Positions 8,639 to 26,402 of a stretch of DNA of 27,946 nucleotides are shown piece after piece (within the stretch, counting starts at the first letter, position 1; the number at the start of each line of letters is the position of its first letter). Below the pieces are notes generated by a model, which was not told the DNA's origin, searched no databases, and was given only the letters and a program-made list of their open reading frames with translations. A program made the position numbers and the translations under genes. Source of the stretch: a virus; UHGV virus genome UHGV-0178950; one strand, given 5' to 3'.

Positions 8639-11600
8639 ATGCGATCAATCCAATTTAAACGCACACAAACGGCTGGTAAAAAACCAACGCCGGAACAATT
8701 ATCACAGGGTGAATTGGCTATTAACCTTGCTGATCACGTTCTGTATACCAAAGATAAAAATAACGCAGTAGTTCAAATCTCTGTTTCTCCAGAAAAACAT
8801 GCTGAACTTAACACGAAAGTAGACCAGAATAAAACCAACACTGACCGTGTTATTGCTTCCAACAAACAAGAGGCCGCTAATAATCTGGCTAGTGCTAAAG
8901 CTGAACTGAATCAGACTATTACCACGAAAGATACAGCGACCAATAAGCGCATTGATGCTACCAACACCACTGTTAGTAACTTAACCCAGACAGTTACGGC
9001 AAATAAAACCGATGCCGACACTAAGATCAATAACCTTACGGGGACCGTATCTGCGAATAAGACCGCAATTGAAAGAACCGTTGCCGCAAACAAATCTGAT
9101 GCAGATAGCAAACATGCAGCTTTAACGAAAACGGTCACTGACAATAACACCGCGATTAACAACAAGGTTAATACCACTAACACCAACGTTAGCAACTTAA
9201 CTAAAACTGTTACTGCAAATAAAACCGATGCAGATAACAAAATTTCTAGCTTAACTAGCACGGTTGCAGCTAACAAGACAGCGATCGAAAAGACTGTTTC
9301 CGACAATAAGAAAGACGCGGATACTAAGATTACCAATCTTACTGGCACTGTTAATAGCAACCATACCGCAATTAACAACAAGGTAGACCAGAATAAATCT
9401 TCTACTGATGCCGCAATTGCAGCCGCTAACAAACGAATTGATGGTATTGAAGGTAGCAATGATGCTCTTTACATCAAGAAGAATACCAATACTAAGCATG
9501 GTGGGTATCTGTTAAGCAAGACAGCTAACTATCTGGAAGACCAGACATCACGAGATCTTAACTACTTTGGTGCTTTCCGTACCAATGGTCAAGATGGACT
9601 CATGGATCTAACTCTTAATGTTCCTCATTCTGCCGGTAAAGCGCACGGTCGCGGATTTACTTTCCGTTATGCGTCTGGTGGATCTCGTGTTGAAACCTAT
9701 GGTTTTGATAGAGAAGGACAGAAGAACTTTAGCTATAAGATGTATCACGAAGGTGATAAGCCGACTCCTGGCGAGATTGGCGCATACACCAAAGCCGAAG
9801 TTGATAAGATGTTTGTTAAAAACGTCGTTATGTCTGTTCCCAATTCTAGCGAAAACGTATCTGCATATTTCAAATTGGCAACCGCAACAATTCCACAAAA
9901 CGGGCGTAGTGTGTTTTTCCGTATTCATGGTGGTAATGGTTACAACGTTACGGCATATGATCAGGTTGACGTAGTAGAAATTCTTCTGCGTAGTGGTAAC
10001 GATAGACCTAAAGGTCTTAACGTAATTGCATACCGTAGAAATACAAACAAAGATTTTGAGGTATTTGCTGTCAATACTTCCGGTGATAACTATGATATCT
10101 ACGTGAAATATCAGCGTTATACCGATAACGTTATTGTCGAATATGGGAAATCTGTTTATGTAAGTTTGACGGTTTATGATACGCCGGAAGCCACGTTAAT
10201 TAAACCTTCCGTTGGTGTTATCGGTGGTCGCAACGTAACTCTTTTTAATACTGAAAATAAACGTGGTGTGTTAAGTTTTGATGATAACACACAAAACAGC
10301 TATGACATTGTTCATCTAAGTAATGATAAAGGTACTGGACGGAAATATATTCGTAAATTCCGTAGCAACTATAACGAAATGGTTTGGCATGAAACCGTTC
10401 AGGGTGCTGTATATCGTCTTGCTACTGGTGCTACAGATTCTACAGAAGTTATTAGAATTGATTCTAATAGTGCAATACCGGGTAATTATAAAGGATATGT
10501 AATTACTGGTAAAATGGAATTGCACGGTAGTGGTAATGCGATGACTTTACATCGACAGACTGGTCAAGCTGCATATATGGCGTGGTGGGATCGTCGTGAT
10601 GGTAAAAACCAACGTAGTGGTTATATCGGTCATGCGGATGGTACTAGTGATGGTTTTGTGTGGCGTAATGATGTTGGTGCTAACTCATTTGATTTGGAAG
10701 GTAGTGGACAAGTAAATTTGACTACAGGAAAAACAAAAATTGTATATACCAATGGTCAATATTATTCCGCTAACGCTGATGCATTCCGTATGATTTACGG
10801 TAAGTATGGTGCATTCTGGCGAAATGATGGTGGTAAAGTTTATCTGTTGTCTACTGCCGAAAATGATAGATTTGGTGGTTGGAATACATATCGACCTTTT
10901 ATCTACGATCTTACTTCCGGTAACGTTCAATTAGGTGGTGATGGAAACGAAGATGTATTAACTCTAGAACGCGCAAGCAAGGCCGCTCGATTCTCTGGCA
11001 ACGCTTACATCAAAGGTCAACATTTAACATTTGATGCTGGTGCTGGACAATCCCGCGATTACTTCCGGTTTAACCATTGGGGCGATAGTAATAACGCTCG
11101 CGATAACATCCTACAGATTGAAGACAGTCAGGGTGCACACTTTACCACTGAACGCGCTATGGGTACTGGCAATATCACAGCACGTTTTAAAGGCTTTGTG
11201 CGTGTAGAATCCGGTGAGATTGCCTTTGATGCTAATCGTGGATCTGCGTCTCAATTTACCTTACATACATGGGGTAACGAGCAACGCAAACAGGTTTTTG
11301 AATGTAAGGATGCTACTAGTTATCATTGGTATACCGAACGTACAAACGGTGGAACTGGTCCTATCCTGTTCTCTGTTGCTGGTACATTAAAAACTGCGAG
11401 CAATATACAGGTTGGCGGTGCTGATATTGAGTTTCGTCGCAGTGGTAATAAGCATTTATGGTTTAGAGATCCGAACGGTTTAGAATTAGGTTTGATGTAC
11501 TGCGATGATGCTGGTGTTATCCGCTTCCGTGGTCAGAAACAAGGTCAAACTTGGAAACTTGCTGATAAAATGATTCATCTTGAGGCGGGGACTGTCGGCG

Positions 11601-12241
11601 GGTCTGATAAAGGTTTGATTCGTGGTAATGTTGCTGGTGGTAGCTGGGCTAGCTGGCGTGATCGTTCTGCCGGAATCCTCGTAGACTGTCCGAACTCAAC
11701 CGATTCCGCTCATAACATCTGGAAAGCGACTCATTGGGGAAAATATCATATTGCGGCAATGGGTGTGCATGTTCCTAGTGGTACTATTACCAATGCTTTA
11801 GCTCGCCTAAACGTTCACGACGCCAACTTTGACTTTAACGCTGCGGGTGATTTTAGCGCAGGTCGTAACGGTAGCTTTAACGATGTTTACATTCGCTCTG
11901 ACTCCCGTTTGAAGATTAACAAGGAAGAATTACAGGACGGTGCATTAGAGAAAGTAAACTCACTGAAAGTCTACACCTACGATAAAGTTAAATCTCTTTC
12001 CGATGACACGGTGATTAAACGCGAAGTAGGTATTATTGCTCAGGATCTGGAAAAAGTATTGCCGGAAGCAGTAGGTATTCAATCCACAGAAGATCCAGAA
12101 CAACCGGAAGCAATCAAGACTATTTCTAACTCTGCTGTTAATGCCTTGATTATTAAAGCTATGCAGGAAATGGACGCCAAATATAAAACACAGATCGAAG
12201 CATTACAGAAAGAAATTGCCGAACTGAAAGCAACTAAATAA
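8639..12241 (+). CDS. Long tail fibre with C-terminal intramolecular chaperone (peptidase S74-like) domain
   Basis: 1200 aa; N-terminal KKPTPEQLSQGELAIN box; Thr/Asn/Lys-rich tandem repeats; C-terminal SDSRLKINKEELQ...VYTYDK...GIIAQDLEKVLPEAV resembles the self-cleaving chaperone of L-shaped fibres and endosialidases. Confidence 0.8.
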   Translation: MRSIQFKRTQTAGKKPTPEQLSQGELAINLADHVLYTKDKNNAVVQISVSPEKHAELNTKVDQNKTNTDRVIASNKQEAANNLASAKAELNQTITTKDTATNKRIDATNTTVSNLTQTVTANKTDADTKINNLTGTVSANKTAIERTVAANKSDADSKHAALTKTVTDNNTAINNKVNTTNTNVSNLTKTVTANKTDADNKISSLTSTVAANKTAIEKTVSDNKKDADTKITNLTGTVNSNHTAINNKVDQNKSSTDAAIAAANKRIDGIEGSNDALYIKKNTNTKHGGYLLSKTANYLEDQTSRDLNYFGAFRTNGQDGLMDLTLNVPHSAGKAHGRGFTFRYASGGSRVETYGFDREGQKNFSYKMYHEGDKPTPGEIGAYTKAEVDKMFVKNVVMSVPNSSENVSAYFKLATATIPQNGRSVFFRIHGGNGYNVTAYDQVDVVEILLRSGNDRPKGLNVIAYRRNTNKDFEVFAVNTSGDNYDIYVKYQRYTDNVIVEYGKSVYVSLTVYDTPEATLIKPSVGVIGGRNVTLFNTENKRGVLSFDDNTQNSYDIVHLSNDKGTGRKYIRKFRSNYNEMVWHETVQGAVYRLATGATDSTEVIRIDSNSAIPGNYKGYVITGKMELHGSGNAMTLHRQTGQAAYMAWWDRRDGKNQRSGYIGHADGTSDGFVWRNDVGANSFDLEGSGQVNLTTGKTKIVYTNGQYYSANADAFRMIYGKYGAFWRNDGGKVYLLSTAENDRFGGWNTYRPFIYDLTSGNVQLGGDGNEDVLTLERASKAARFSGNAYIKGQHLTFDAGAGQSRDYFRFNHWGDSNNARDNILQIEDSQGAHFTTERAMGTGNITARFKGFVRVESGEIAFDANRGSASQFTLHTWGNEQRKQVFECKDATSYHWYTERTNGGTGPILFSVAGTLKTASNIQVGGADIEFRRSGNKHLWFRDPNGLELGLMYCDDAGVIRFRGQKQGQTWKLADKMIHLEAGTVGGSDKGLIRGNVAGGSWASWRDRSAGILVDCPNSTDSAHNIWKATHWGKYHIAAMGVHVPSGTITNALARLNVHDANFDFNAAGDFSAGRNGSFNDVYIRSDSRLKINKEELQDGALEKVNSLKVYTYDKVKSLSDDTVIKREVGIIAQDLEKVLPEAVGIQSTEDPEQPEAIKTISNSAVNALIIKAMQEMDAKYKTQIEALQKEIAELKATK
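8978..9409 (+). repeat. Two tandem copies of a 216-nt (72-aa) coding repeat inside the fibre gene
   Basis: NLTQTVTANKTDADTKINNLTGTVSANKTAIERTV... repeated as NLTKTVTANKTDADNKISSLTSTVAANKTAIEKTV..., period 216 nt (8978 to 9194). Confidence 0.7.
11896..12241 (+). other. Predicted autoproteolytic chaperone domain of the fibre; cleavage predicted at the Ser-Asp of SDSRLK
   Basis: SDxRLK-type motif at 11896-11913 followed by about 110 residues with a coiled-coil tail. Confidence 0.55.
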
Positions 12242-12298: not shown

Positions 12299-12775
12299 AT
12301 GTCTCAGCAATTTAAAGATATTTTTACTGGTGGTCTGGTAAGTATGTTCTATCACGCCGATACCACTAACACCGATCTTGCACATGAAAGCTATGAAGAA
12401 ATTAAAGAGTGTGCTGGTTTTCCTGAAACTGGTATCGAGCGCGGCACTGTAGAAGTTAAATCCTTCTCTTCTCAGTACAACCGTAAGCTGGTAGGTAAAC
12501 TGAATGTTCCTGATCTGACTCTGACCGTTAACTACATTCCAGGTGATGCTACTCACGCTAAACTGGATAAGGCTGCCGAAGATGGTACGCGTATTCAGAT
12601 TAAGATTGAATATTATGTTGATGCTGGTAAGCAGACTGGTATTCGCACCGCTTTCAACGGCTTTATCTCTAAAGCTGCTATGCAGGGTGGCGACGAAGAA
12701 GTTGTAACCAAAGAATATACTTTTGCGGTTGATGGTGCTCCGATCAAACAGGAAGTGTTTACCACTGGCGGATGA
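12299..12775 (+). CDS. Abundant virion protein, candidate major tail tube protein, 158 aa
   Basis: Strong optimal codon bias as in the capsid domain; AAGGGGT Shine-Dalgarno; sits upstream of the G/T chaperones and tape measure; paralogous to the N-terminal half of the 7727 gene; a decoration protein is an alternative. Confidence 0.55.
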   Translation: MSQQFKDIFTGGLVSMFYHADTTNTDLAHESYEEIKECAGFPETGIERGTVEVKSFSSQYNRKLVGKLNVPDLTLTVNYIPGDATHAKLDKAAEDGTRIQIKIEYYVDAGKQTGIRTAFNGFISKAAMQGGDEEVVTKEYTFAVDGAPIKQEVFTTGG

Positions 12776-12901
12776 ACTAACGAAGAACTTCCTTTACCAG
12801 AATCGGAACCACTGCCGGAACATGAAGCGGTGGTGATTCCAGAAGTAGAAGAAGTTACGGCGAAAGCCACAGCAAAACGAGGCCGCAAGGCTAAGAATTA
12901 A
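12776..12901 (+). other. In-frame 41-codon extension after the major tail TGA stop; candidate readthrough product
   Basis: Open in frame 0 after TGA at 12773-12775; encodes TNEELPLPESEPLPEHEAVVIPEVEEVTAKATAKRGRKAKN; shares an identical 20-mer (gttacggcgaaagccacagc) with 6911-6930. Confidence 0.3.
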
Positions 12902-12906
12902 TTTTA

Positions 12907-12935
12907 AGCCCTGCCTTAATGGTGGGGCTTTTTTA
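12907..12935 (+). terminator. Rho-independent terminator after the major tail gene, same stem as 6964-6991
   Basis: AGCCCTGCC-ttaat-GGTGGGGCT followed by TTTTTT. Confidence 0.7.
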
Positions 12936-12949
12936 TTGGAGTAATCAAA

Positions 12950-13456
12950 ATGGCAAATGTCGTTAAAGTTCCTGGCTGGATCGGGTCATCTGCTGTATCG
13001 GTGACGGGTAAGCGATGGATGAAAGAAGCATTAACAGCTTTAAAAGTTCCGGCTCCGCGTAATATGTCGGCAATGGCTGGTCGTGGTATGGATACGGTTG
13101 TAGCTACTGCATCGTGGTCTACTTCATTGGGTAATAACTGGGGTGTAACTGCTTCAAACTATCCTGTTTCCGGTATGCAAAGCAAAGGATCTATGGAGAA
13201 CCCCGAAAACGTGGGCGTAGGGCGTCTGGTTGGCGTTATCGTTGGTCAATTCAATGGCGGTACTCCTACTATGGCTGTATATCTCCAGAACGGTAGAGCG
13301 GGGAATATAACCGTTAATTTGGGTGGTGCTGCTGTCACTGTTCCTTATAACAGTATGCAAAGTGGTTTTCATTACTATTGGTTAAGCAATCCTCCGGCTG
13401 CTTTCCTAACAAATATTAAGAAGACTGGCACTAAGCAGACTTTGAAAATCTCTTAA
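12950..13456 (+). CDS. Hypothetical tail-associated protein, 168 aa, Gly/Ser/Thr-rich
   Basis: ORF with GGAG Shine-Dalgarno; ordinary codon usage; lies between the tube candidate and the chaperones. Confidence 0.5.
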   Translation: MANVVKVPGWIGSSAVSVTGKRWMKEALTALKVPAPRNMSAMAGRGMDTVVATASWSTSLGNNWGVTASNYPVSGMQSKGSMENPENVGVGRLVGVIVGQFNGGTPTMAVYLQNGRAGNITVNLGGAAVTVPYNSMQSGFHYYWLSNPPAAFLTNIKKTGTKQTLKIS

Positions 13457-13501
13457 ATTCTAAATAAATACAGCGTAATCACTATTAATGAGGAAACAAT
13501 A

Positions 13502-13810
13502 ATGAATCTGAATGAAATGCTGAAAGCTCTTTCTCCGAAACGTGAATCTTTAACCCTCGGCGGATTTACGTTCTATGCTCGCCCTATGTCGGTGCAAGAA
13601 TTTAATGAACATGTTTTCAATACTGATAAAAAAGACCGCGATGAACGCTCTATTCTTCGTTGTATTGAAGATGAAGACGGTAAGCCAGTATTTGAATCTA
13701 TTGAACAAGTTAAGGCACTGTATACTAGCGTCCGCAGCGAATTAATCGGCTTAGTTGCTCAAGCATCATTGATGAAAGATGCGGCGGTAATTGAAAACGA
13801 GGTAAAGTAA
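13502..13810 (+). CDS. Tail assembly chaperone, G-like
   Basis: 102 aa acidic protein directly upstream of an overlapping -1 frame ORF and the tape measure gene; GAGGAAA Shine-Dalgarno. Confidence 0.6.
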   Translation: MNLNEMLKALSPKRESLTLGGFTFYARPMSVQEFNEHVFNTDKKDRDERSILRCIEDEDGKPVFESIEQVKALYTSVRSELIGLVAQASLMKDAAVIENEVK

Positions 13811-14193
13811 ACCCGCTCTTGAATTTTTATTTTCGGCAAATGATGCGTCGGGGCTTGAGTAAAGATGAGATGGATAATATGCCAATTACGCTATTTTGGG
13901 CGTTGCATATATTCGATACATATCTTGAACCACAAAGCCCCCTATATCAAGATGCGCGACATGCACAGTCGATGTATTACATGCACGTTACATCTCCTAA
14001 CATGACTCGTGAATGGTTGAATAAAATCAATGTTAACCAATTCCGAATGATTAAGGACGACAAGCAATTTAAAACGCAAGAAGAAATAAAAGAAATTGCT
14101 CGTAAGAAAGAGGAAGAACGTAACTCTGCTTTGGTTGATAGTTATTTCGACGCTTCATTATTACAAAAGCTCAAGAGCGGTCAATTGGGGTAA
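13795..14193 (+). CDS. T-like extension of the tail assembly chaperone, probably expressed as a G-T fusion by -1 frameshifting
   Basis: Frame -1 relative to the G-like ORF, open from 13795, overlapping its last four codons; no convincing Shine-Dalgarno for independent initiation at TTG 13819. Confidence 0.45.
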   Translation, partial: KRGKVNPLLNFYFRQMMRRGLSKDEMDNMPITLFWALHIFDTYLEPQSPLYQDARHAQSMYYMHVTSPNMTREWLNKINVNQFRMIKDDKQFKTQEEIKEIARKKEEERNSALVDSYFDASLLQKLKSGQLG

Positions 14194-14196
14194 TTT

Positions 14197-16629
14197 ATGA
14201 CAAAACATATAGTAACAATAGAAGGGGATAATAAAGGTCTAAGGAGAAGTACCAATGAAGCCGCCGACCTTCTCGATAGTTTGTCTGAAAAGGCAAGTGG
14301 TATTGATTTTGGTGGTGGCTTATCTGGTCTGACTGGATCTCTTCGTGGGATCGCTGGCTCTGCTGGTTTGGCTGCTGGTGGTATCGGCTTAGTTGCGACC
14401 GCAGTGGTTGCAGCCGCTAAAGCTGGCGCGGAATACGTTAAACAATATTCAGAAGTATCTAAGGCGACCGGACTCTCGATTGAATCCCTTCAAAGACTGG
14501 AAAAGGAATTTTCTGGTACTGGCCTAACAGTTGAAAAATTCGGTGATATCAACAAAGACACCTTAGATAAGATGGGTGATGCATGGGCTAACGGTGGTGG
14601 TATTGCTGATGACTTAGAATCGGTTGGCCTTAAGTTAGAAAACTATGCTCACTTCATGACTGATCCGCAAGGTGGTATGAAAGCGGCGATCCAAGTGTTC
14701 TATGACATGAAGAAAGCCGGAAAATCAATGGCTGAAATCAAGTTCATGATGGAATCTTTAGCCAGTGATTCAAGTCATATGACCAGCCAGCTTGAGAAAT
14801 ATAATAGTGCTCAAGAGGCGATGATCGCTATTCAGAATCAATCTGTTAACGTCACCGAAGAAAACGCTAAAAAATATGATAAATTTTCTCAAAATATCAA
14901 TAAGCTGGAAAATAACCTGAAAGGTGTCGGCATGACCATTTCTGGTCCTTTGGTTGATAGCTTAAACTGGTTATTTGACTGGTTTAATATTGATTGGGAA
15001 AAGAGTTCTCTATTCAGGGCATTAGATCGACTGAATAAAGAAGGCAAGACCGCAACTGGTGGTATTCTTAACGCCAACCATAAAGACGCTCAAAAGATTA
15101 TTGACAAGTACAATAAAGAAAAGCGTTGGAATAATCTAGCAGATTGGGAAAAGGCCGCGATCCGTGGTGCTGGTGTCGATCCTCGTACTGCTGGCTTTGA
15201 TGTAGAAGGATTTAAGAAACGTTTTGGTGGGTCTTATAAGAAAAATGGTGCTCTGATTGTCGTAGATGCTGGTGAACATCTGACACGCAAGGCAGATCCT
15301 AACACTGATTTAACTCTACCAAATAAACCAGTAAGACCAGAATCATTGGGTAAATCTGGCAACGAGAAGAAAGCCGAGGAAGAAGCACGCAAGAAAGCGG
15401 AAGAGGCAGCTAAAAAGGCTAAGGAAGCCGCAGAAAAAGCACAGAAAGAACGTGAGGATGCAATCAAGCGTCTGAATGCACTTGATGTTAAATTGCAAGG
15501 GCAAGTTGCAGCGTCTATTGCTTCTCAAAACAAGCAGTTAGAAGCCAGCTTGAAAGATTTGGATACTGCTTTAGATCTGGGCTTAATCTCTCAACAAGAC
15601 GCAGCCGCGAAACGCCAATCCTTAATCGATCAGAATACTGAAAACGTATACAAAATGGTCTTAGGTGCTGATCCTGTTGATGCGCTGAATGCTTTAACAC
15701 AATTGCAACAAATCAGGGACAATGAGTTAGAAAGCCATAAACGGTTACTTGATGGTAAGGCTATCTCCTACGATGAATATATGCGTCGTGTGAATGATAC
15801 CAATCAGAATTATAGTCAAATTGGCAATGCTTTACAGGGAATGGATGGTTTTAAAACCAATCAATTAACCAGCGGATTTGATTATCAAGACTCAAATAAT
15901 CCGTTTGCTAAATTTAATGCAATCGATAAAGAGAAATCGGAAGCCGAACAAGATTATAAGACCGATAAACTACTCAAGATTGATGGGATCACCGATCCGG
16001 CTAAACGGATGGAAGCATTAGAAAAACTCAATGAAAACCATCAAAAACGGATGGCTGCAATTGAAAAGAAATATGCTGATGCTCGCCAGTCAATAGCCGA
16101 TGATATGTATGGCGGTTTTGCTGCTGCAATGACTCTCTTCGGGCAGGAAAACACTAAAGCTATGCAGATGGCTTTCAATGCTCATAAAGCATTCTCTATC
16201 GGACAAGCGACGGTGAACATGTGGACGGCTGCTACCGATGCATGGAACGATCCGACCAACGTCACCACAGGTCAAAAAATTGCTGCTGCTGCATTGGCTG
16301 TTTCTCAGAACATGGGGAACATCGCAAACATCAAGTCTACTAACGTTAGCGGTATGGCTCATGATGGTATTGATAACATCCCTCGTGAGGGTACATGGTT
16401 GCTTGATAAGGGTGAACGAGTAGTTGATCAGCGTACTAACGGTGATTTGAAAGACTTCTTATCTGCTCAAAAATCAGGCGGTGGTAACTCTCAGCCGATT
16501 GAAGTTAATGCGCCTTTGAACATTAACGGCAATGTTAATAGCTCAGACAAGATGGTTATGGATGCTATCAAACGTCACGCTAAGTTAGTTGCTCAGGCGG
16601 TAGAAGACGCACAGCGCCGTAAGATGTAA
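14197..16629 (+). CDS. Tape measure protein
   Basis: 810 aa; Gly/Ala-rich hydrophobic segment near the N-terminus, long Lys/Glu/Ala coiled-coil stretches, position after the chaperone pair. Confidence 0.8.
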   Translation: MTKHIVTIEGDNKGLRRSTNEAADLLDSLSEKASGIDFGGGLSGLTGSLRGIAGSAGLAAGGIGLVATAVVAAAKAGAEYVKQYSEVSKATGLSIESLQRLEKEFSGTGLTVEKFGDINKDTLDKMGDAWANGGGIADDLESVGLKLENYAHFMTDPQGGMKAAIQVFYDMKKAGKSMAEIKFMMESLASDSSHMTSQLEKYNSAQEAMIAIQNQSVNVTEENAKKYDKFSQNINKLENNLKGVGMTISGPLVDSLNWLFDWFNIDWEKSSLFRALDRLNKEGKTATGGILNANHKDAQKIIDKYNKEKRWNNLADWEKAAIRGAGVDPRTAGFDVEGFKKRFGGSYKKNGALIVVDAGEHLTRKADPNTDLTLPNKPVRPESLGKSGNEKKAEEEARKKAEEAAKKAKEAAEKAQKEREDAIKRLNALDVKLQGQVAASIASQNKQLEASLKDLDTALDLGLISQQDAAAKRQSLIDQNTENVYKMVLGADPVDALNALTQLQQIRDNELESHKRLLDGKAISYDEYMRRVNDTNQNYSQIGNALQGMDGFKTNQLTSGFDYQDSNNPFAKFNAIDKEKSEAEQDYKTDKLLKIDGITDPAKRMEALEKLNENHQKRMAAIEKKYADARQSIADDMYGGFAAAMTLFGQENTKAMQMAFNAHKAFSIGQATVNMWTAATDAWNDPTNVTTGQKIAAAALAVSQNMGNIANIKSTNVSGMAHDGIDNIPREGTWLLDKGERVVDQRTNGDLKDFLSAQKSGGGNSQPIEVNAPLNINGNVNSSDKMVMDAIKRHAKLVAQAVEDAQRRKM

Positions 16630-17940: not shown

Positions 17941-18360
17941 ATGCTAAAAACTAGGCTTATCACCGATTACATCAATTCTTTAATAGGTCAGGAGTTCGTT
18001 CAGGGTGAGAATGATTGCAATTTAATTGCATGTAAGATCATCGATATTCTCGCTGGCACTGACCTATATAATTCTCTTTATAAAAAATATTCAACTAAAG
18101 AAGAAGGCTTGAAAATCTGCAAAGAATTAAGCGGGTATTCAAATATCCTTCAACCAATTAAGAAACATTTCAAATTAGTCACTGATGATTTACAGGACGG
18201 CGATTTACTGGTCACAGCCCACAAATTAGGAAACCGTAATTATTATTCCGTAGTTCCTCATTATTCCGGTTATGGCCTCGTTGAAGAAGATGGTATCTGG
18301 ATGACCATTCCTGTTTCAGACATTGACTATGAACAAGTTTATAGATTCGGGGGTGAATAA
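17941..18360 (+). CDS. Tail assembly protein with a possible NlpC/P60-like cysteine peptidase core (K-like)
   Basis: Start set at ATG 17941, with GGAGGT 7 nt upstream; GENDCNLIACK Cys motif and downstream His; stop overlaps the next start (TAATG). Confidence 0.45.
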   Translation: MLKTRLITDYINSLIGQEFVQGENDCNLIACKIIDILAGTDLYNSLYKKYSTKEEGLKICKELSGYSNILQPIKKHFKLVTDDLQDGDLLVTAHKLGNRNYYSVVPHYSGYGLVEEDGIWMTIPVSDIDYEQVYRFGGE

Positions 18361-21300
18361 TGGGATTTGAAATATTGGTAGGCGCGGTTATTGCTGGTGC
18401 GTCTGCTGGGATGGCTGCTGCTGCAACATTTTCTGTTATGACCGCAGTCGCTATCGGTATGGCTGCTGGTGCAATGACCTTGATCGCTTCCACTGTAGGC
18501 GCACCAAAAACACCTAAAGTACAAAGCCCAGATAATGCGGTGACACTAGGAACATCAAACGATCCGAAAGCGGTGATACCAGTCGTTTTCGGTACTACCC
18601 GCACTGGCACAAACTGTGTTTACAAAGCAGTTTCTAAGCAAGAAAACAATAAGCTAGTGCAAATCTTCTCTGTAGCCGAGGGTGAAATCGACCATTACAA
18701 AGCACTCTTTATTGATAATAAAAATGTTCTTGTTGGTAAGAACATGACGATCCGTGATGGTATTCTCGATAAGGGCAACATTAAAGAAGAATATCGTAAA
18801 GTATTAGAAGTCGAGTTCCGCACGGGCAAGAATCCTAACACCGCTTTGTCGCTGGCAAAACGTCATTTAGGCTCAGACTGGACCGACGCTTTCAAGGGTA
18901 ACGGCATTGCAACCATGTGTATTGTGTTACGTCGTGATGACAAATCTCTTGCTGCTGGTGTTGATATTCTCCAGCCAAATAGCCAGGTAGCAGTAGACGT
19001 TTGCGGCCTTAAAATCCGTAACCTTGAAACCAATGCTATTGAGGCTAGCACTAACGGCGTGGATCAGATTTTCCACTACCTAACAAATGAAAAATATGGC
19101 TTATCCGTACCAATTGAAAACATTAACGTTGATTCATTCCTGAAAGTACGTAAACAAGTACGCCAGATGGATCTACATTCAAACGGTGCATGTGATCCGA
19201 ACGCCAGCTTTAAAGAAAACTTGACTAATCTTATGCAGACTTTCGGCGGGGTGATGTTCGAATCCTTTGGACGTATTACGCTGAAACTGGATGCTCCTGA
19301 TATTGTTAAGCATACCTTCAATGAAGACAATATCATGATGGGTAAGGTATCACTGAAAACAGGTGGCACTAACGGTTATTTCAATACCATTAACGCGATG
19401 TATCAAGAACCATCAATTGACTATTCAGAGCAAATGCTACGTTATCCGGCTGATGCTGAAAACGATGCTACTGTTCGCGCAGATGGTCGAATTATTGCTA
19501 AGGATGTAGAATATCGTTTCGTTAAGTCTAAAGATCAGATTGATAAACTTGCGAGCATTGAGCGAAATAAATCTCGTATCACTCAGGTTATCAGCTTTAT
19601 GACTACTGACGCATTCACTGCCGAAGTTTGGGACGTTATCAGCGTAACCTATGATGAATTGAAGCTGAATAATTCCTTATGGCGTATTACTGCAATTGAT
19701 CGCTCGATTGATTCTGGTATTGCTGGGATGATGACTATCACCGCCACAGAATATAATTCTCAGGTTTATACTGACCTGAACTATGCGGCAACTCCAGACA
19801 ATAGACCAAGTTTACCGGATTCAATGACAGTACAGAAGCCTACTAATTTCAGAATTAAGGCAACTGGTGAGACGATTTACGGTAAAAACGTTACTTTGAC
19901 ATGGGATGCACCGGAAGATTTTAACCGTTATGGTTTCCAGATTGATTACCGTGTAAGCGGATCACCTAACTGGATTAAGCTGGGACAGACTTCACAGCAA
20001 ATTTTCAGTGTCAATGCACTGGCAAAAGATCGTTCCTACGATTACCGAGTTTGTGCTTTCGGTATCATCGCGCGATCCGATTGGGTAGAACTGGTTAACC
20101 AGAATCCTACCGTTACCTATGAATTGCCGACTCCGGTTATTCGAATCAAAAATCAGGGTAGCACGCCAGGAACTTTCGAAGGTAATGATCTGATTATCGA
20201 ATGGGAAAACCAGCAACAATTAGATGTGATGATCAACGGTGAAACTAACAAGTTTAGTGACCTGTTTGAAGCATACATTATCAAGGTGACTAACAAGGCT
20301 GGTAAGTCTATTCAGTACCGTACCCGCGATCCTGAATCATGGACTTATACGCTTGATATGAACCAGTTTAACGGCCTTTCGCGTCAACTTACGGTAGAAG
20401 TATCAGCTAAGGGCTATAACAACTCAGAGAGCGCCCCAGCGCGTTTAGTGGCTATCAACCCACAACATAAGCCAATGAAAGGTTTTAGTGCGCGTGGTGG
20501 CTTTAATACTGCGTTTGTTAGCTGGGCGGATGACGTAGAACATGACTATGCAGGGTCAATCATCCAGTATGCAACCGACAACACTTTCTCAGATGCAAGG
20601 GCAGTAAGCACGAATAGTGTTAGCCATACTTCCTTTGATATTGCTGACGGTGATTATTATATCCGTGGTGCTCACTACGATATTTTCGGTATGGATGATG
20701 CTGTTTGGTCTGAACCGTATTTCATGCAAATGAAGTCTACGATTAGTTGGGACGATCAGGACAAAGAAGCACTGGAAGACCTGATCGGTTTACAAGATCG
20801 CTTAGATGAAACTATCGCGGATGCTATTAAGCAAGCTGGCGCTAATGCCGATGCTAAAATTGATGCAATGCATAAGCAAATCACTACCGAGACGGGTAAA
20901 ACTGTTCAAGCCTCAGCCGATACTCTCAAGAGTCTGATTGCTTCTGGTGATAAGGCAAGTTCAACTAAGATTGATCAGGTTAAAGCTGAACTGAAAGGCG
21001 ATATCACCAAAGAAGTTAGTGCATCTGCTACTAGCCTGAAACAAGCTATTGCTACCAGTGAAGCAGCAAGCGCAAGTAAGATTGACCAAGTTCGGGTAGA
21101 AATGGATGGCAAGATTGCTGGTGTGAATCAGGAAGCAGATGTAAAAATCGATGCTTTGAAGGGAACCATTAACAGCAAATATAATCTGGCGGTTAATGCA
21201 GATGGTCGCGTGGCTGGTATTCACATGAGCGCAACCAACGATCCGGCACAACCGACGAGAATCATCTTTAATGCTGATAAAATCGCGGTAGCTCCACAGG

Positions 21301-22133
21301 ATGGATCGGGTATTTGTCCTTTTGGTATCGAAGGTAACAAGGTTTATCTCGATAATGCGATGATTCGTAATGCTGCAATTGGTACAGCCCAGATTAATGA
21401 TGCGGCAATTACTACCGCTAAGATCGGCAATGCTGCAATTAACAGCGCGAAGATTCAGGACGGGGCAATCACTAACGCCAAGATCGTAAACGGTGCTATT
21501 GATAATGCCAAAATTGGTAACTATATCCAGTCTTCCAACTGGAACGGATCTACCGGATGGCATATCAACAAGAACGGGTCCGCTACGTTCATGAACGCTA
21601 CCGTTAAAGGTAATATCACGGCTGATTCTGGTACTCTGAACAACGTCACGATTAACTCTAGCTGTGTTATTAAGGGTATGCTTGAAGCTACTCAGGTTAA
21701 GGGTGATTTCGTTAAGGTGATTGGTCGTAAGTTCCCGCACCGTGATGTTAACGTTGATAATGGTTATGCTGGCTATCCACAGGGTACGGTCACTGTTCGC
21801 GTTGAAGATGATCACAAGTTCGATCGTCAAATCGTTATTCCGGCAATTAGTTTTGGTGGATTGCGAGCGCGTGAAGGGTCGAACAATAATACCTATTACG
21901 ACACCTGTCGCCTGATTGTTCGTAAGAATGGGTCAGAGTTGTATAATAGGGCGTATGGCGGTAATACTGGTCTTTACTCAGGTGTTATTGATATGCCAGC
22001 GGGTAAGGGTGCTGTGACCTTGACCTTTGAAGTGCAATCAAGCGCAATCAACAACTGGACGCCTAGCACATGGATCAGTGATTTAACAGTAATGGTAACT
22101 AAAAAAGCCACTACTGGTATTACTGTTTCTTAA
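18360..22133 (+). CDS. Tail tip / host-specificity protein, J-like, with an I-like Gly/Ala-rich hydrophobic N-terminus
   Basis: 1257 aa; N-terminal about 100 aa resemble the C-terminal half of lambda gpI; fibronectin III-like segments; C-terminal 9-10 aa repeats (AIGTAQINDAAITTAKIGNAAINSAKIQDGAITNAKIVNGAIDNAKIGN). Confidence 0.8.
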   Translation: MGFEILVGAVIAGASAGMAAAATFSVMTAVAIGMAAGAMTLIASTVGAPKTPKVQSPDNAVTLGTSNDPKAVIPVVFGTTRTGTNCVYKAVSKQENNKLVQIFSVAEGEIDHYKALFIDNKNVLVGKNMTIRDGILDKGNIKEEYRKVLEVEFRTGKNPNTALSLAKRHLGSDWTDAFKGNGIATMCIVLRRDDKSLAAGVDILQPNSQVAVDVCGLKIRNLETNAIEASTNGVDQIFHYLTNEKYGLSVPIENINVDSFLKVRKQVRQMDLHSNGACDPNASFKENLTNLMQTFGGVMFESFGRITLKLDAPDIVKHTFNEDNIMMGKVSLKTGGTNGYFNTINAMYQEPSIDYSEQMLRYPADAENDATVRADGRIIAKDVEYRFVKSKDQIDKLASIERNKSRITQVISFMTTDAFTAEVWDVISVTYDELKLNNSLWRITAIDRSIDSGIAGMMTITATEYNSQVYTDLNYAATPDNRPSLPDSMTVQKPTNFRIKATGETIYGKNVTLTWDAPEDFNRYGFQIDYRVSGSPNWIKLGQTSQQIFSVNALAKDRSYDYRVCAFGIIARSDWVELVNQNPTVTYELPTPVIRIKNQGSTPGTFEGNDLIIEWENQQQLDVMINGETNKFSDLFEAYIIKVTNKAGKSIQYRTRDPESWTYTLDMNQFNGLSRQLTVEVSAKGYNNSESAPARLVAINPQHKPMKGFSARGGFNTAFVSWADDVEHDYAGSIIQYATDNTFSDARAVSTNSVSHTSFDIADGDYYIRGAHYDIFGMDDAVWSEPYFMQMKSTISWDDQDKEALEDLIGLQDRLDETIADAIKQAGANADAKIDAMHKQITTETGKTVQASADTLKSLIASGDKASSTKIDQVKAELKGDITKEVSASATSLKQAIATSEAASASKIDQVRVEMDGKIAGVNQEADVKIDALKGTINSKYNLAVNADGRVAGIHMSATNDPAQPTRIIFNADKIAVAPQDGSGICPFGIEGNKVYLDNAMIRNAAIGTAQINDAAITTAKIGNAAINSAKIQDGAITNAKIVNGAIDNAKIGNYIQSSNWNGSTGWHINKNGSATFMNATVKGNITADSGTLNNVTINSSCVIKGMLEATQVKGDFVKVIGRKFPHRDVNVDNGYAGYPQGTVTVRVEDDHKFDRQIVIPAISFGGLRAREGSNNNTYYDTCRLIVRKNGSELYNRAYGGNTGLYSGVIDMPAGKGAVTLTFEVQSSAINNWTPSTWISDLTVMVTKKATTGITVS

Positions 22134-24172: not shown

Positions 24173-24340
24173 TAGAATATGCTGGCGACGTTAGCTATAT
24201 TTCTGACCATTTTTTCATTATAGACAAATATACCGCAGACGATAAAGTCGTTTTGACGAAGTAGATCCGTCTCTGGTTGAAGTAATGAAAGAACCGGAAG
24301 ACCTAGAGCTTGATTTAAGCCAATTATAGACTCTCTAACG

Positions 24341-24375
24341 CAATTAAATTAAAAAGGGGTACGGATGTACCCCTT
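24341..24375 (-). terminator. Rho-independent terminator for the minus-strand recombinase operon
   Basis: Perfect 9-bp inverted repeat AAGGGGTAC-ggat-GTACCCCTT; the T-rich run lies on the minus-strand transcript (CCCCTTTTTAATTTAATT). Confidence 0.6.
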
Positions 24376-24411
24376 AAAGCGTTTGGTTCGTTATACGGCG
24401 ATTTAGGCCGC

Positions 24412-24684
24412 CTATGATTTATTTTCTTGTTCTATGAAAATCTTTCTCACCTCATCAGAATAAATGTCTAGTGATTCCTCATAACATTTTCTGTATTCAT
24501 CGTAATTACTGGTGGTCTTTTGACATAGCAATTTCAATGTCTTATGTGCTCCATCAATGAAAGCATCTTCTCTATAGGTTAGCGGTCTACGCATTTCTTG
24601 GTCTACGGTTGCCAATGCCAAGCAAGAATTCATAGATAAAATCAAACCTAAAATCTTAATCATCTTCATTAGCTTAAATTCCAA
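24412..24684 (-). CDS. Small secreted or lipoprotein-like protein, about 85-90 aa
   Basis: N-terminal signal peptide MKMIKILGLILSMNSCLALA with a possible AxA cleavage or atypical lipobox; two Cys in the mature part; overlaps the recombinase 3' end by 11 nt. Confidence 0.55.
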   Translation of the reverse strand: MEFKLMKMIKILGLILSMNSCLALATVDQEMRRPLTYREDAFIDGAHKTLKLLCQKTTSNYDEYRKCYEESLDIYSDEVRKIFIEQENKS

Positions 24685-26353
24685 ATTCTTGTAATGGACC
24701 TGGTATTTCTTCTTCTGGTTTCCAGTTCTTATCTGTCAGCATGTCTAAACATGGATGCAGAACAAGCCCGTTACTCTCCAGAATCTGCCTATCATTGATA
24801 GTCTTCAAATCAACGAAGATCCGGCCTTTCCTCGGTCCTCTTGAATTTTCTATTACAACTCTCTGGGTCTTGCCATCGATGTATTCCAGTACAAACAAGT
24901 TTTTGTACTTGTCAATCCTGCTACACCCGATCCGTTTTAGAGCTTGCTTAATCTTAAACCGGACCTTAATGCGATCCTCGTTGTAAACATCTTCTAAATC
25001 AAATTCTGCGAGCTTCTCCCAGCCTTGAGAGTCAACAGAATACATTTCCTCTTCTGCCATCTTAAGTTGATTGTAGAGTGTTTCACGCTCGCTATTGAGG
25101 GTAGTAATCTGATCGGCTAGCTCCTTCGTTGCTCCTGTCATAGCAGAAAGGGTAATCAGGTTATCAATCTTGCGTGATATTTCATCAATCTGTACTTTCA
25201 AAGCCGGAACCGGATTAGCCTTATCTTCAGCAATCCAGATTTTATCAGCCAGCAATTGCAATACAGCTTTCTCTAATTGGTCGCCGCGAAAACTCCAGTT
25301 TGTATGCACACATTCAATACGACTAGAGCGCATTGCATCGCATGAATAACGATATTGGTTAGGCCGTCTGTTTGTTCCTTTCACCTTAACCATAGCGGAA
25401 CCGCAATGTTCACATTTCAGCAGATTAACACCACTAAGCAGGGGGATCGGTTTAGCTTCTTCTTTGTCTCCATAGTTACATGCTCTAACACCAATGCTTT
25501 TCTTAAGGTGATAAAACTCAGCGTCATCTAGCACACGAGGGTAATAATCCTTTAACTCATACTTAACGCCATCTACAGAGATTTCCTTGATACCAATCAA
25601 AGCGCGGGTATGGAACAACCTTTCAATCATTGCTCGTGACCAGTTTGAATGCCTCTTGTGACTTGCGGCTGGTGGTGGTGTATATGTCGCGTTAAGGTGA
25701 TCCAGTATCTCGGCGGTAGACCGTCCATTCCTGCGTAATTCCACAACCTCCTGAACAATAGGGAAGAAGACCGGATCGGGACACACATAACCGGAAGTGG
25801 TATCAGTCCACCACATATTCTTTCCAACTTCCTCGATTGCCACAGCCGGATTTTGTGGATTTTCTTGATGAGCTTTAATCTTAATCAGTGCGCTTGAGTT
25901 AGTACGATTGCGCTTAGTCTGGCTTTCCTCATTACCACGGATGAATAAAAGGATGGAGAACATCAGGTCCATCGGGTTAGCGGTAACAGTATCAAGCGAG
26001 TAGATCTTGTTATCCATGCCAGTAACAATGGTTATCCCCCTACGGATGATTGAAAGGAATAACTCCTGCGCACTGACAATATCGGCACGGGATAAACGGT
26101 CCAAGTTTTCGATGAATAGCCAGCTACCAACAGGAACGGATCTACCTATTGCATCAAGGAAACGAGATAGCGCCCCTGTTTTGGAGTTAGCACCCTTAAA
26201 CGCAGATACACCCAGATCCTGATAATCATTTACCAGTTCAAGGTCATACTTTACCGCAATCTCTCTAGCCATCCTGATTTGTCGTTCATAACTCGAACCA
26301 TCATTCTGACGCATAGACGAGAAGCGAATATACGAATACAGTTTAGTTTTCAT
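24674..26353 (-). CDS. Large serine recombinase (integrase/resolvase superfamily)
   Basis: N-terminal catalytic domain YSYIRFSSMRQ...SYERQ...ENLDRLSR, zinc-ribbon-like CEHCGSAM...YRYSC, C-terminal coiled coil; start set at the ATG encoding MKTKLYSYIR, the ORF track extends to a TTG at 26368. Confidence 0.85.
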   Translation of the reverse strand: MKTKLYSYIRFSSMRQNDGSSYERQIRMAREIAVKYDLELVNDYQDLGVSAFKGANSKTGALSRFLDAIGRSVPVGSWLFIENLDRLSRADIVSAQELFLSIIRRGITIVTGMDNKIYSLDTVTANPMDLMFSILLFIRGNEESQTKRNRTNSSALIKIKAHQENPQNPAVAIEEVGKNMWWTDTTSGYVCPDPVFFPIVQEVVELRRNGRSTAEILDHLNATYTPPPAASHKRHSNWSRAMIERLFHTRALIGIKEISVDGVKYELKDYYPRVLDDAEFYHLKKSIGVRACNYGDKEEAKPIPLLSGVNLLKCEHCGSAMVKVKGTNRRPNQYRYSCDAMRSSRIECVHTNWSFRGDQLEKAVLQLLADKIWIAEDKANPVPALKVQIDEISRKIDNLITLSAMTGATKELADQITTLNSERETLYNQLKMAEEEMYSVDSQGWEKLAEFDLEDVYNEDRIKVRFKIKQALKRIGCSRIDKYKNLFVLEYIDGKTQRVVIENSRGPRKGRIFVDLKTINDRQILESNGLVLHPCLDMLTDKNWKPEEEIPGPLQEFGI

Positions 26354-26359
26354 ACCATT

Positions 26360-26402
26360 TCCAAACAAAAACGCCCCTACCGCGTATTATAACGATAGGG
26401 GC
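26360..26402 (-). terminator. Hairpin plus T-rich run on the minus strand between the secreted-protein gene and the recombinase; loop contains TATAAT
   Basis: GCCCCTA...TAGGGGC stem; minus-strand downstream GTTTTTGTTTGG. Confidence 0.4.

Follow-up and report, generated by a model that had tools for sequence, protein, structure and literature searches.

The stretch analysed here, referred to as the window, is the whole 27,946-nucleotide (nt) UHGV virus genome UHGV-0178950 (42% GC), which contains a structural module of lambda-like type. We examined two overlapping open reading frames (ORFs) on its plus strand that resemble the G and T tail assembly chaperone genes of phage lambda. The G-like ORF (13502–13810) encodes a 102-amino-acid (aa) protein ending in ...IENEVK, and its 3′ end reads ATT GAA AAC GAG GTA AAG TAA, with the stop codon TAA at 13808–13810. 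The T-like ORF lies in the -1 frame, where a TGA at 13792–13794 sets the 5′ limit for a productive -1 shift and the frame stays open from 13795 to 14193, ending in the TAA at 14191–14193. The first-pass annotation of this DNA had described just such a T-like ORF, opening 13 nt ahead of the G-like stop, and had pointed to TTG 13819 and ATG 13840 as codons from which T might start independently; the layout is confirmed and both codons lie at those positions. The overlap contains an SD-like GAGGT, that is, a string resembling a Shine-Dalgarno (SD) element, that encodes Glu-Val 1 nt 5′ of the AAG codon (13799–13803), and the motif G_GTA_AAG (13801–13807) with the core tetramer A_AAG (13804–13807), immediately followed by the G stop codon. 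From sequence comparison, we consider it highly probable that the two ORFs form a lambda-type G/GT chaperone pair of an Escherichia coli (E. coli) siphovirus-like prophage, expressed by a programmed -1 shift of tRNA-Lys on A_AAG. The T segment after the shift would run from its first codon GTA (13807–13809) to the TAA at 14191–14193, and the fusion (13502–13807 joined to 13807–14193) has a computed size of 230 aa and 27.0 kDa, compared with 11.6 kDa for G alone.

The genes around the pair are arranged as tube, gp38-like gene, G, T and tape measure, matching a chaperone pair located between tube and tape measure. The upstream tail tube (major tail) gene (12299–12775, plus strand) matches phrog_158, major tail protein, at 1.3e-21, has weak Pfam tail-tube matches, and is named 'phage tail tube protein' by the Prokaryotic Genome Annotation Pipeline (PGAP) in the identical locus of E. 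coli 39EVA. A gp38-like adhesin gene (12950–13456) is inserted between tube and G. The downstream gene (14197–16629, plus strand) matches phrog_13674, tail length tape measure protein, at 2.8e-62. G itself matches the tail assembly chaperone family phrog_344 at 1.8e-7, as do 5 of 6 family members, and Pfam Phage_TAC_13 at 1.6e-4 (22.4 bits, under the 28.8 gathering cut-off; 4 of 6 members match), which weakly assigns it by profile similarity to the tail assembly chaperones. Profile searches of the PDB with G and with T returned nothing significant, and an AlphaFold2 (AF2) single-sequence model of G was unusable, with a predicted local distance difference test (pLDDT) score of 54. Profile searches with T found no Pfam or PHROG relative either, and its family is tiny, with 19 representatives among 1.84 billion clusters.

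Relatives of the locus were drawn from IMG/VR, with the T and G proteins and their alignments as queries, and from metagenomes, complete E. coli genomes and species-representative genomes. About 60 contigs (E. coli prophages, Buttiauxella and phage DCP80) were sorted into 17 lineage groups. Positions 12900–14300 match the 39EVA chromosome of E. coli at 100% identity, and a search of 5426 complete E. coli genomes located related copies in 53, all of them chromosomal; the locus therefore belongs to an E. coli prophage. A first scan of genome contigs recovered no relatives, and in the second of the two scans the species-representative genomes gave only a Buttiauxella gaviniae locus and one contig of a metagenome-assembled genome; the metagenome scan returned only members of the already known ~65% clade. 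Among phages, megablast of 12900–14300 against 50,697 records gave no match, tblastn against GenBank phages recovered a single, distant relative, the E. coli phage DCP80 (L001, PQ671644.1), and the matches in a whole-window comparison with phages were confined to the T4-like fibre gene. The DCP80 record is 141 kb long and classified as Straboviridae/Gaprivervirus; its G/T stretch, in which all genes are annotated as hypothetical, resembles a siphovirus tail module, and its classification or assembly deserves a re-check.

Relative to G, T occupies the -1 frame in all related loci. This bears on the reading that the locus is simply decaying, either through a frameshift mutation in a former single GT gene or as part of a dead prophage, with nothing programmed about it. 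The locus does sit in prophages, and one relative (L022/L115) has had the 5′ two-thirds of G replaced or disrupted, leaving a 74-aa ORF in what is probably a defective copy. However, the ~60 contigs and the 53 E. coli genomes retain this -1 arrangement, with G and T both intact, down to 25% protein identity and with coding-type substitutions in both parts, and we regard decay as extremely improbable.

The substitution pattern follows the proposed change of frame. In the G body, 38 of 57 variable columns among 32 unique sequences fall on third positions of the 0 frame; after the motif, in the same 32 sequences, it is the third positions of the -1 frame that vary (4 of 7 columns, then 17 of 30). 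Across 13810–13839, the stretch just beyond the shift site, 8 of 10 codon variants in 20 unique close sequences are synonymous in the -1 frame, compared with 1/10 and 1/7 in the other frames, and this pattern shows that the segment is read in the -1 frame. Eight lineages share the peptide K-[VIE]-N-P-[LF]-L-x-F-Y-[FY]-R-Q, encoded by varying codons. The 60 nt directly after the slip site are the best-conserved part of T in all lineages (0.78–0.85). Together, gene order, frame and -1-frame selection support the earlier proposal that these are the tail-chaperone genes G and T, expressed through a -1 shift.

Two further features of this region were noted. In a comparison with L010–L034, the junction appears mosaic: G is ~90% identical at the nucleotide level between the window clade and the ~65% clade, and identity drops to 55–78% through T. 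Within T, at 13846–13860, the window and the ~65% clade differ by a compensated pair of single-base indels (CGT CGG GGC TTG AGT versus CGA TCG GGG CTT AGT), which converts R-R-G-L-S to R-S-G-L-S and leaves the -1 frame intact.

The same data bear on whether T is made only as a separate protein, starting at ATG 13840/13843 or at TTG 13819, for example by re-initiation ~30 nt past the G stop. Current annotation takes this form. PGAP starts T at ATG 13843 (39EVA locus 14944) as a separate 'hypothetical protein' with no frameshift marked, all inspected E. coli copies in RefSeq/PGAP (L035, L080, H42–H44 and others) carry G and T as two separate hypothetical genes, none of them with a programmed frameshift annotated, and gene callers start all T-family representatives at that Met; the 102-aa G protein is even named 'cytochrome' by PGAP in many genomes. 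ATG 13843 is moreover conserved in close clades, and coupling across the 30 nt from the G stop is conceivable. On the other hand, the 10–12 codons before the ATG are under purifying selection in the -1 frame, and the conserved F-x-Y-R-x-x-[ML]-R-[RK]-G-L motif lies upstream of the first possible start; L123, L125, L130 and DCP80 have no ATG, GTG or TTG ahead of it at all. The candidate starts also lack an SD: predicted anti-SD pairing is -1.1 and -1.7 kcal/mol at ATG 13840/13843, compared with -4.3 to -9.9 kcal/mol at the 10 neighbouring-gene ATG starts tested, and reaches -6.3 kcal/mol ahead of the G start, ATG 13502. TTG 13819 is CTG or TTA in relatives, and ATG 13840 is ATT in L082/L116. 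A separate start would furthermore leave the strict in-phase conservation of A_AAG, described below, unexplained. A T protein made only from its own start, the case that the first-pass annotation had set against a fusion, is thus improbable, and the ATG ATG at 13840–13845 would instead be an internal Met-Met of GT.

We then consider the shift site itself. The first-pass annotation had found no X_XXY_YYZ heptamer in the overlap, and none of the four in-phase heptamers (T_GAA_AAC, A_AAC_GAG, C_GAG_GTA and G_GTA_AAG) fits that pattern. In G_GTA_AAG the first triplet is broken (G_GT, 13801–13803) and the second is intact (AAA, 13804–13806, then G). The missing heptamer is not an anomaly, since A_AAG and NNA_AAG are a described class of bacterial -1 sites (PMC5009743, PMC4066793). 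At its minimum a -1 site consists of a Z_ZZN tetramer, and in E. coli no such tetramer is more prone to shift than A_AAG (Sharma 2014, PMC4066793). Here an in-phase A_AAG lies inside the open -1 frame. Such a tetramer occurs at 15 of 6589 codons (0.23%) of the prophage structural ORFs, so that about 1% would be expected by chance within the four-codon window, and its presence exceeds chance. AAG makes up 35% of Lys codons in the prophage, yet it is used at the shift site in 16 of the 17 groups. As a side observation, the 15 in-phase A_AAG in the large plus-strand structural ORFs compare with ~38 expected from 23.9% A-ending codons and 158 AAG codons, an expectation made with no proper null model, and this scarcity is consistent with avoidance of shift-prone sites. 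In the literature, the string GGUAAAG turned up solely in primers and siRNAs.

An aligned C-terminal Lys of G carries an in-phase N_NNA_AAG/A within the permitted window in 17 of 17 lineage groups, with A_AAG at the homologous position in 16 and A_AAA in the remaining one. This Lys is an invariant column both in the G alignment and in the T alignment. The permitted window spans 13 nt here, 7–52 nt in most relatives and 106 nt in L113. In the following, motifs are given in the 0 frame together with the next 0-frame codon. The window, the ~65% clade, L032/33/L081 and L082/L116 have G_GTA_AAG followed by TAA, L030/L100 have G_GTA_AAG followed by TAG, and L080 has G_GTA_AAA followed by TAA. The G stop is likewise adjacent in L119 (A_GTA_AAG, TAA), in L118, L132 and Buttiauxella (A_AAA_AAG, TAA) and in L121/122/L134 (G_GAA_AAG, TAA). 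It comes one codon later in L123–L127 (G_GAA_AAG, then AAC or AAA, then TAA) and in L130/131 (A_GAA_AAG, then AAA, then TAA), 4 codons later in L069/L113 (G_GTA_AAG, AAA), 6 in L120 (A_AAA_AAG, TCA), 10 in DCP80 (T_TTA_AAG, a canonical heptamer, then CCG) and 11 in L129 (A_GTA_AAG, GAA). The residue encoded by the 5′ codon thus varies (Val, Glu, Lys or Leu; GTA, GAA, AAA or TTA), and its third base is always A.

Among the closest relatives conservation extends further: motif and stop (13801–13810) are invariant in the 32 unique sequences of the two closest clades, and no variation in GGTAAAGTAA is seen within the window clade, the ~65% clade or L032/33/L081/L082. Two candidate signals were dropped. 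AACCCGCT, which follows the stop and is invariant in close clades, is lost in L082 and distant lineages. Selection on heptamer position 1, suggested by a G held in both GAG and TCG codons, was abandoned because lineages with A_GTA_AAG and A_GAA_AAG exist. Position 1 is A in L119, L129 and L130; since it is not conserved, the working unit is A_AAG and not the heptamer. By sequence class, the site is a tetranucleotide/hexanucleotide site (A_AAG, NNA_AAG) and not a tandem X_XXY_YYZ, except that no stimulator was found.

A real shift elsewhere in the 13-nt window was also considered, for example by tRNA-Asn on T_GAA_AAC (13792–13798), or transcriptional slippage in its place. A_AAC (13795–13798) is in phase and inside the permitted window, and the relatives with A_AAA_AAG carry a run of seven A (A7) on which RNA polymerase slippage is conceivable. 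However, no homopolymer near the junction is longer than AAAA in the window, and a run of this length is too short for transcriptional slippage. Several lineages, L032, L080, L082 and L119 among them, lack A_AAC, which also belongs to the tetramers reported as barely or not shift-prone in E. coli (PMC4066793). We consider a shift elsewhere very improbable. The conservation of A_AAG supports instead the shift codon that the first-pass annotation had favoured, namely the last sense codon AAG, with tRNA-Lys moving onto AAA 13804–13806 and a junction that would join ...ENEVK to VNPLLNFYF.

In the mechanism that we favour, the majority of ribosomes would translate G (13502–13810, 102 aa) and terminate at TAA 13808, and a small fraction would shift on G_GUA_AAG (13801–13807). 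The single E. coli tRNA-Lys (mnm5s2UUU) on AAG (13805–13807) would re-pair one base back, with AAA (13804–13806); the next codon read would be GUA (13807–13809), and translation would continue in the -1 frame to 14193. The product would be the 230-aa GT fusion, running ...ENEVK-VNPLLNFYFRQMM..., and, by analogy with lambda, its G part would bind the tape measure and its T part the tube protein. The slip may occur as a two-tRNA or A-site slip during translocation, or as a P-site slip of peptidyl-tRNA-Lys while UAA awaits a release factor; the junction peptide would be identical by either route. The shifting of ribosomes, its efficiency and its timing are inferred. Two routes are known for E. 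coli dnaX: a translocation-coupled two-tRNA slippage that is aided by a downstream stem-loop, and a slow slip of a single tRNA in the P site, which takes place while the A site is vacant and requires no structure (PMC6771820).

The closest known parallel is the tail-assembly-chaperone frameshift conserved in tailed phages (Levin 1993; Xu, Hendrix & Duda 2004, 2013, 2014; summarised in PMC5009743). As in lambda gpG/gpGT, the overlapping ORFs are flanked by the tube and tape-measure genes, the second ORF occupies the -1 frame and lacks a start of its own, the predicted shift is near the end of G on an ...A_AAG Lys codon, and the short G and the long GT would share their N-terminus. Unlike the canonical G_GGA_AAG of lambda (PMC5009743), the P-site triplet is broken here (G_GTA) and a stop directly follows the motif, and no sequence similarity was detected between T and any described T family. 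IS1222 makes natural use of an NNA_AAG site (G_CGA_AAG), and another is present in Bacillus subtilis cdd (A_CGA_AAG); the efficiency of such sites depends on how the tRNA for the 5′ codon behaves at the wobble position (Licznar 2003 and Mejlhede 1999, as given in PMC5009743). As at those sites, the sole cognate re-pairing here is made by tRNA-Lys as it leaves AAG for AAA, the tRNA on the preceding NNA codon is unable to re-pair in full, and the host has a single Lys tRNA; in E. coli one tRNA-Lys (mnm5s2U34) reads both AAA and AAG (PMC5009743). The 5′ codon differs, being CGA there, GUA here, and GAA, AAA or UUA in relatives, and IS1222 and the IS3 reporter have a downstream structure, whereas none was found here. 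E. coli dnaX shifts on A_AAA_AAG with the same A-site codon and tRNA-Lys, and exactly this heptamer is present in L118, L120, L132 and Buttiauxella. In dnaX, however, an upstream SD at ~10 nt and a downstream stem-loop stimulate the shift and the shifted product is the shorter one; here no such stimulators were found and the product would be longer. Finally, the 'twoonefour' pattern XXYZZZZ of PRFect (PMC10885494) fits GGTAAAA of L080, and GGTAAAG of the window differs from it in the last base only; that pattern is an untested one from high-GC actinophages (SEA-PHAGES chaperones), whereas here position 1 is not conserved.

Several results weigh against a programmed shift at this site. Stimulators were looked for on both sides of the motif. 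Single-sequence folding of the downstream RNA gave z = +0.43, not unusually stable; the RNAalifold consensus reached only -4.98 kcal/mol with nearly no covariation; across the 17 lineages, with folding windows of 40 and 70 nt, z lay between -1.5 and +1.7, with no unusually stable 3′ region; and an Rfam search at E <= 10 returned noise only. No consistent SD was found 6–17 nt upstream of the site, where GGCGGT, AAGGT and CCGGT strings occur in some lineages and are not conserved. The GAGGT that abuts the site is replaced by TCGGT or GAAGT in relatives and is probably incidental. If anything, GAGGU in this position would be expected to damp -1 shifting, as an SD duplex juxtaposed to the site is reported to attenuate it (PMC6321510). 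In E. coli reporters, A_AAG gave 5.6% shifting with the IS3 pseudoknot, and 0.147% against a background of 0.112% without a stimulator (PMC4066793). Since A_AAG is thus near background on its own and no stimulator was found here, efficiency may be very low if neither the stop nor some unknown element assists. Further, the lineages share ancestry, and the conservation counts are therefore not independent events. No natural in-frame G–T fusion is present among the 19 T-family representatives in 1.84 billion proteins, and a search for homologous proteins with the GT fusion as query gave no match. GT itself is a predicted product, put forward on the frame arrangement, the conservation of A_AAG, the coding selection in the -1 frame and the lack of a ribosome-binding site ahead of T.

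Without a stimulator, two options may be envisaged: GT is needed at a very low level, or the adjacent stop supplies a pause. As for the first, the lambda G:GT ratio is ~30:1 (PMC5009743) and HK97-like chaperone frameshifts reach 6–7% in E. coli (PMC3711429), and a low-efficiency site is therefore compatible with function. The second concerns the TAA that adjoins the shift codon, on which the first-pass annotation had gone further, proposing a slip at AAG with the stop codon in the A site. The site stands; the role of the stop is not established. Of the 17 groups, 9 have the stop next to the shift codon, 4 have it one codon further on and another 4 have it 4–11 codons further on. AAG is followed by a sense codon in L069/L113, relatives of the window (AAA), and in L129, a relative of L119 (GAA). 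Judged from these alignments, the adjacent stop is not essential to the family, and we give somewhat less than an even chance to its truly contributing in this phage.

A strict form of this idea is an obligatory -1 shifty stop, in which peptidyl-tRNA-Lys would slip only with UAA unread in the A site, competition from release factors would set G:GT, and there would be essentially no shift without the stop. The adjacent stop recurs in every major clade of the GT neighbour-joining tree, including the 25%-identical outgroup, and it is retained as TAG in L030, where a 3-nt GTA duplication directly after the motif (AAG TAG TAA) would add one Val to GT and leaves a stop adjacent. No other stimulator was detected beside an A_AAG that is near background by itself in reporters (PMC4066793), downstream structure is dispensable for the P-site slip of a single tRNA beside a vacant A site (PMC6771820), and in PEMV a stop close to the -1 site matters (PMC5009743). 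However, the 8 groups without an adjacent stop (L069/L113, L129, L120, DCP80 and those with AAG AAC/AAA TAA) keep G, T and the motif intact, and where the stop comes one codon later there would be no slippery tRNA in the P site when the stop occupies the A site. A slow A site also matters more for +1 than for -1 shifting (PMC5009743). In addition, since either release factor recognises UAA, only a short pause would be expected. We consider an obligatory shifty stop rather unlikely. The site may also be compared with the +1 'shifty stop' of prfB (RF2; CUU_UGA): the shift codon is again the last sense codon, a stop would occupy the A site, and immediately 5′ of the site there is an SD-like GAGGU. 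The prfB shift is +1, however, its SD is 3 nt upstream and its stop has a proven and autoregulatory role, whereas here the shift would be -1 and the stop is not conserved and has no proven role.

It is similarly doubtful that the UAA abutting A_AAG is a real stimulator, forming a natural -1 'shifty stop' without RNA structure or SD. Were it so, the G:GT ratio would be set by release factors competing with P-site slippage of peptidyl-tRNA-Lys, and the stoichiometry of tail assembly would be sensitive to termination efficiency or growth state. The tree, with A_AAA_AAG followed by TAA deepest and GTA, GAA and TTA later, would then describe a heptamer that relaxed while A_AAG and the stop were retained.

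The remainder of the window carries the other parts of the lambda-like structural module. It encodes a gpA terminase (778–2682), a portal (3260–4771), a protease-capsid fusion (4817–6829), a long T4-like tail fibre (8639–12241), a J-like tip protein (18360–22133) and, on the minus strand, a large serine recombinase (24674–26368). The 670-aa ORF at 4817–6829 joins a prohead serine protease domain (S78, residues 40–162) to an HK97-type major capsid domain (residues 412–666). The fibre contains a Gp34 trimerisation domain and an S74 chaperone domain and is ~80% identical at the nucleotide level to RB49/Krischvirus gp37 across 9506–12172; together with the gp38-like adhesin, it is set around the tail tube gene in what looks like a transfer of a fibre module from a myovirus to a siphovirus. 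The 39EVA copy (L035), in a prophage that is otherwise identical, has downstream of the lysis-like genes an IS1A insertion (25310–26007) that is annotated with a programmed frameshift of its own. The window lacks IS1A (~24200–24900) and carries instead the serine recombinase.

Returning to the tRNA-Lys shift on A_AAG that we favour, the locus is most likely an ordinary but unannotated case of a well-known phage frameshift, and it leaves the general picture of tail-chaperone frameshifting unchanged. Its annotation as two separate genes is the reason why the GT fusion is missing from protein databases, and searches for canonical heptamers (Sharma 2014) or with fixed motif lists (PRFect) would miss the A_AAG site here. 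The family amounts to a natural allelic series in which A_AAG is constant and the 5′ codon and the distance to the stop vary, and this series could be used to ask how far -1 frameshifting in E. coli depends on a bare A_AAG, on its 5′ codon and on an adjacent stop.

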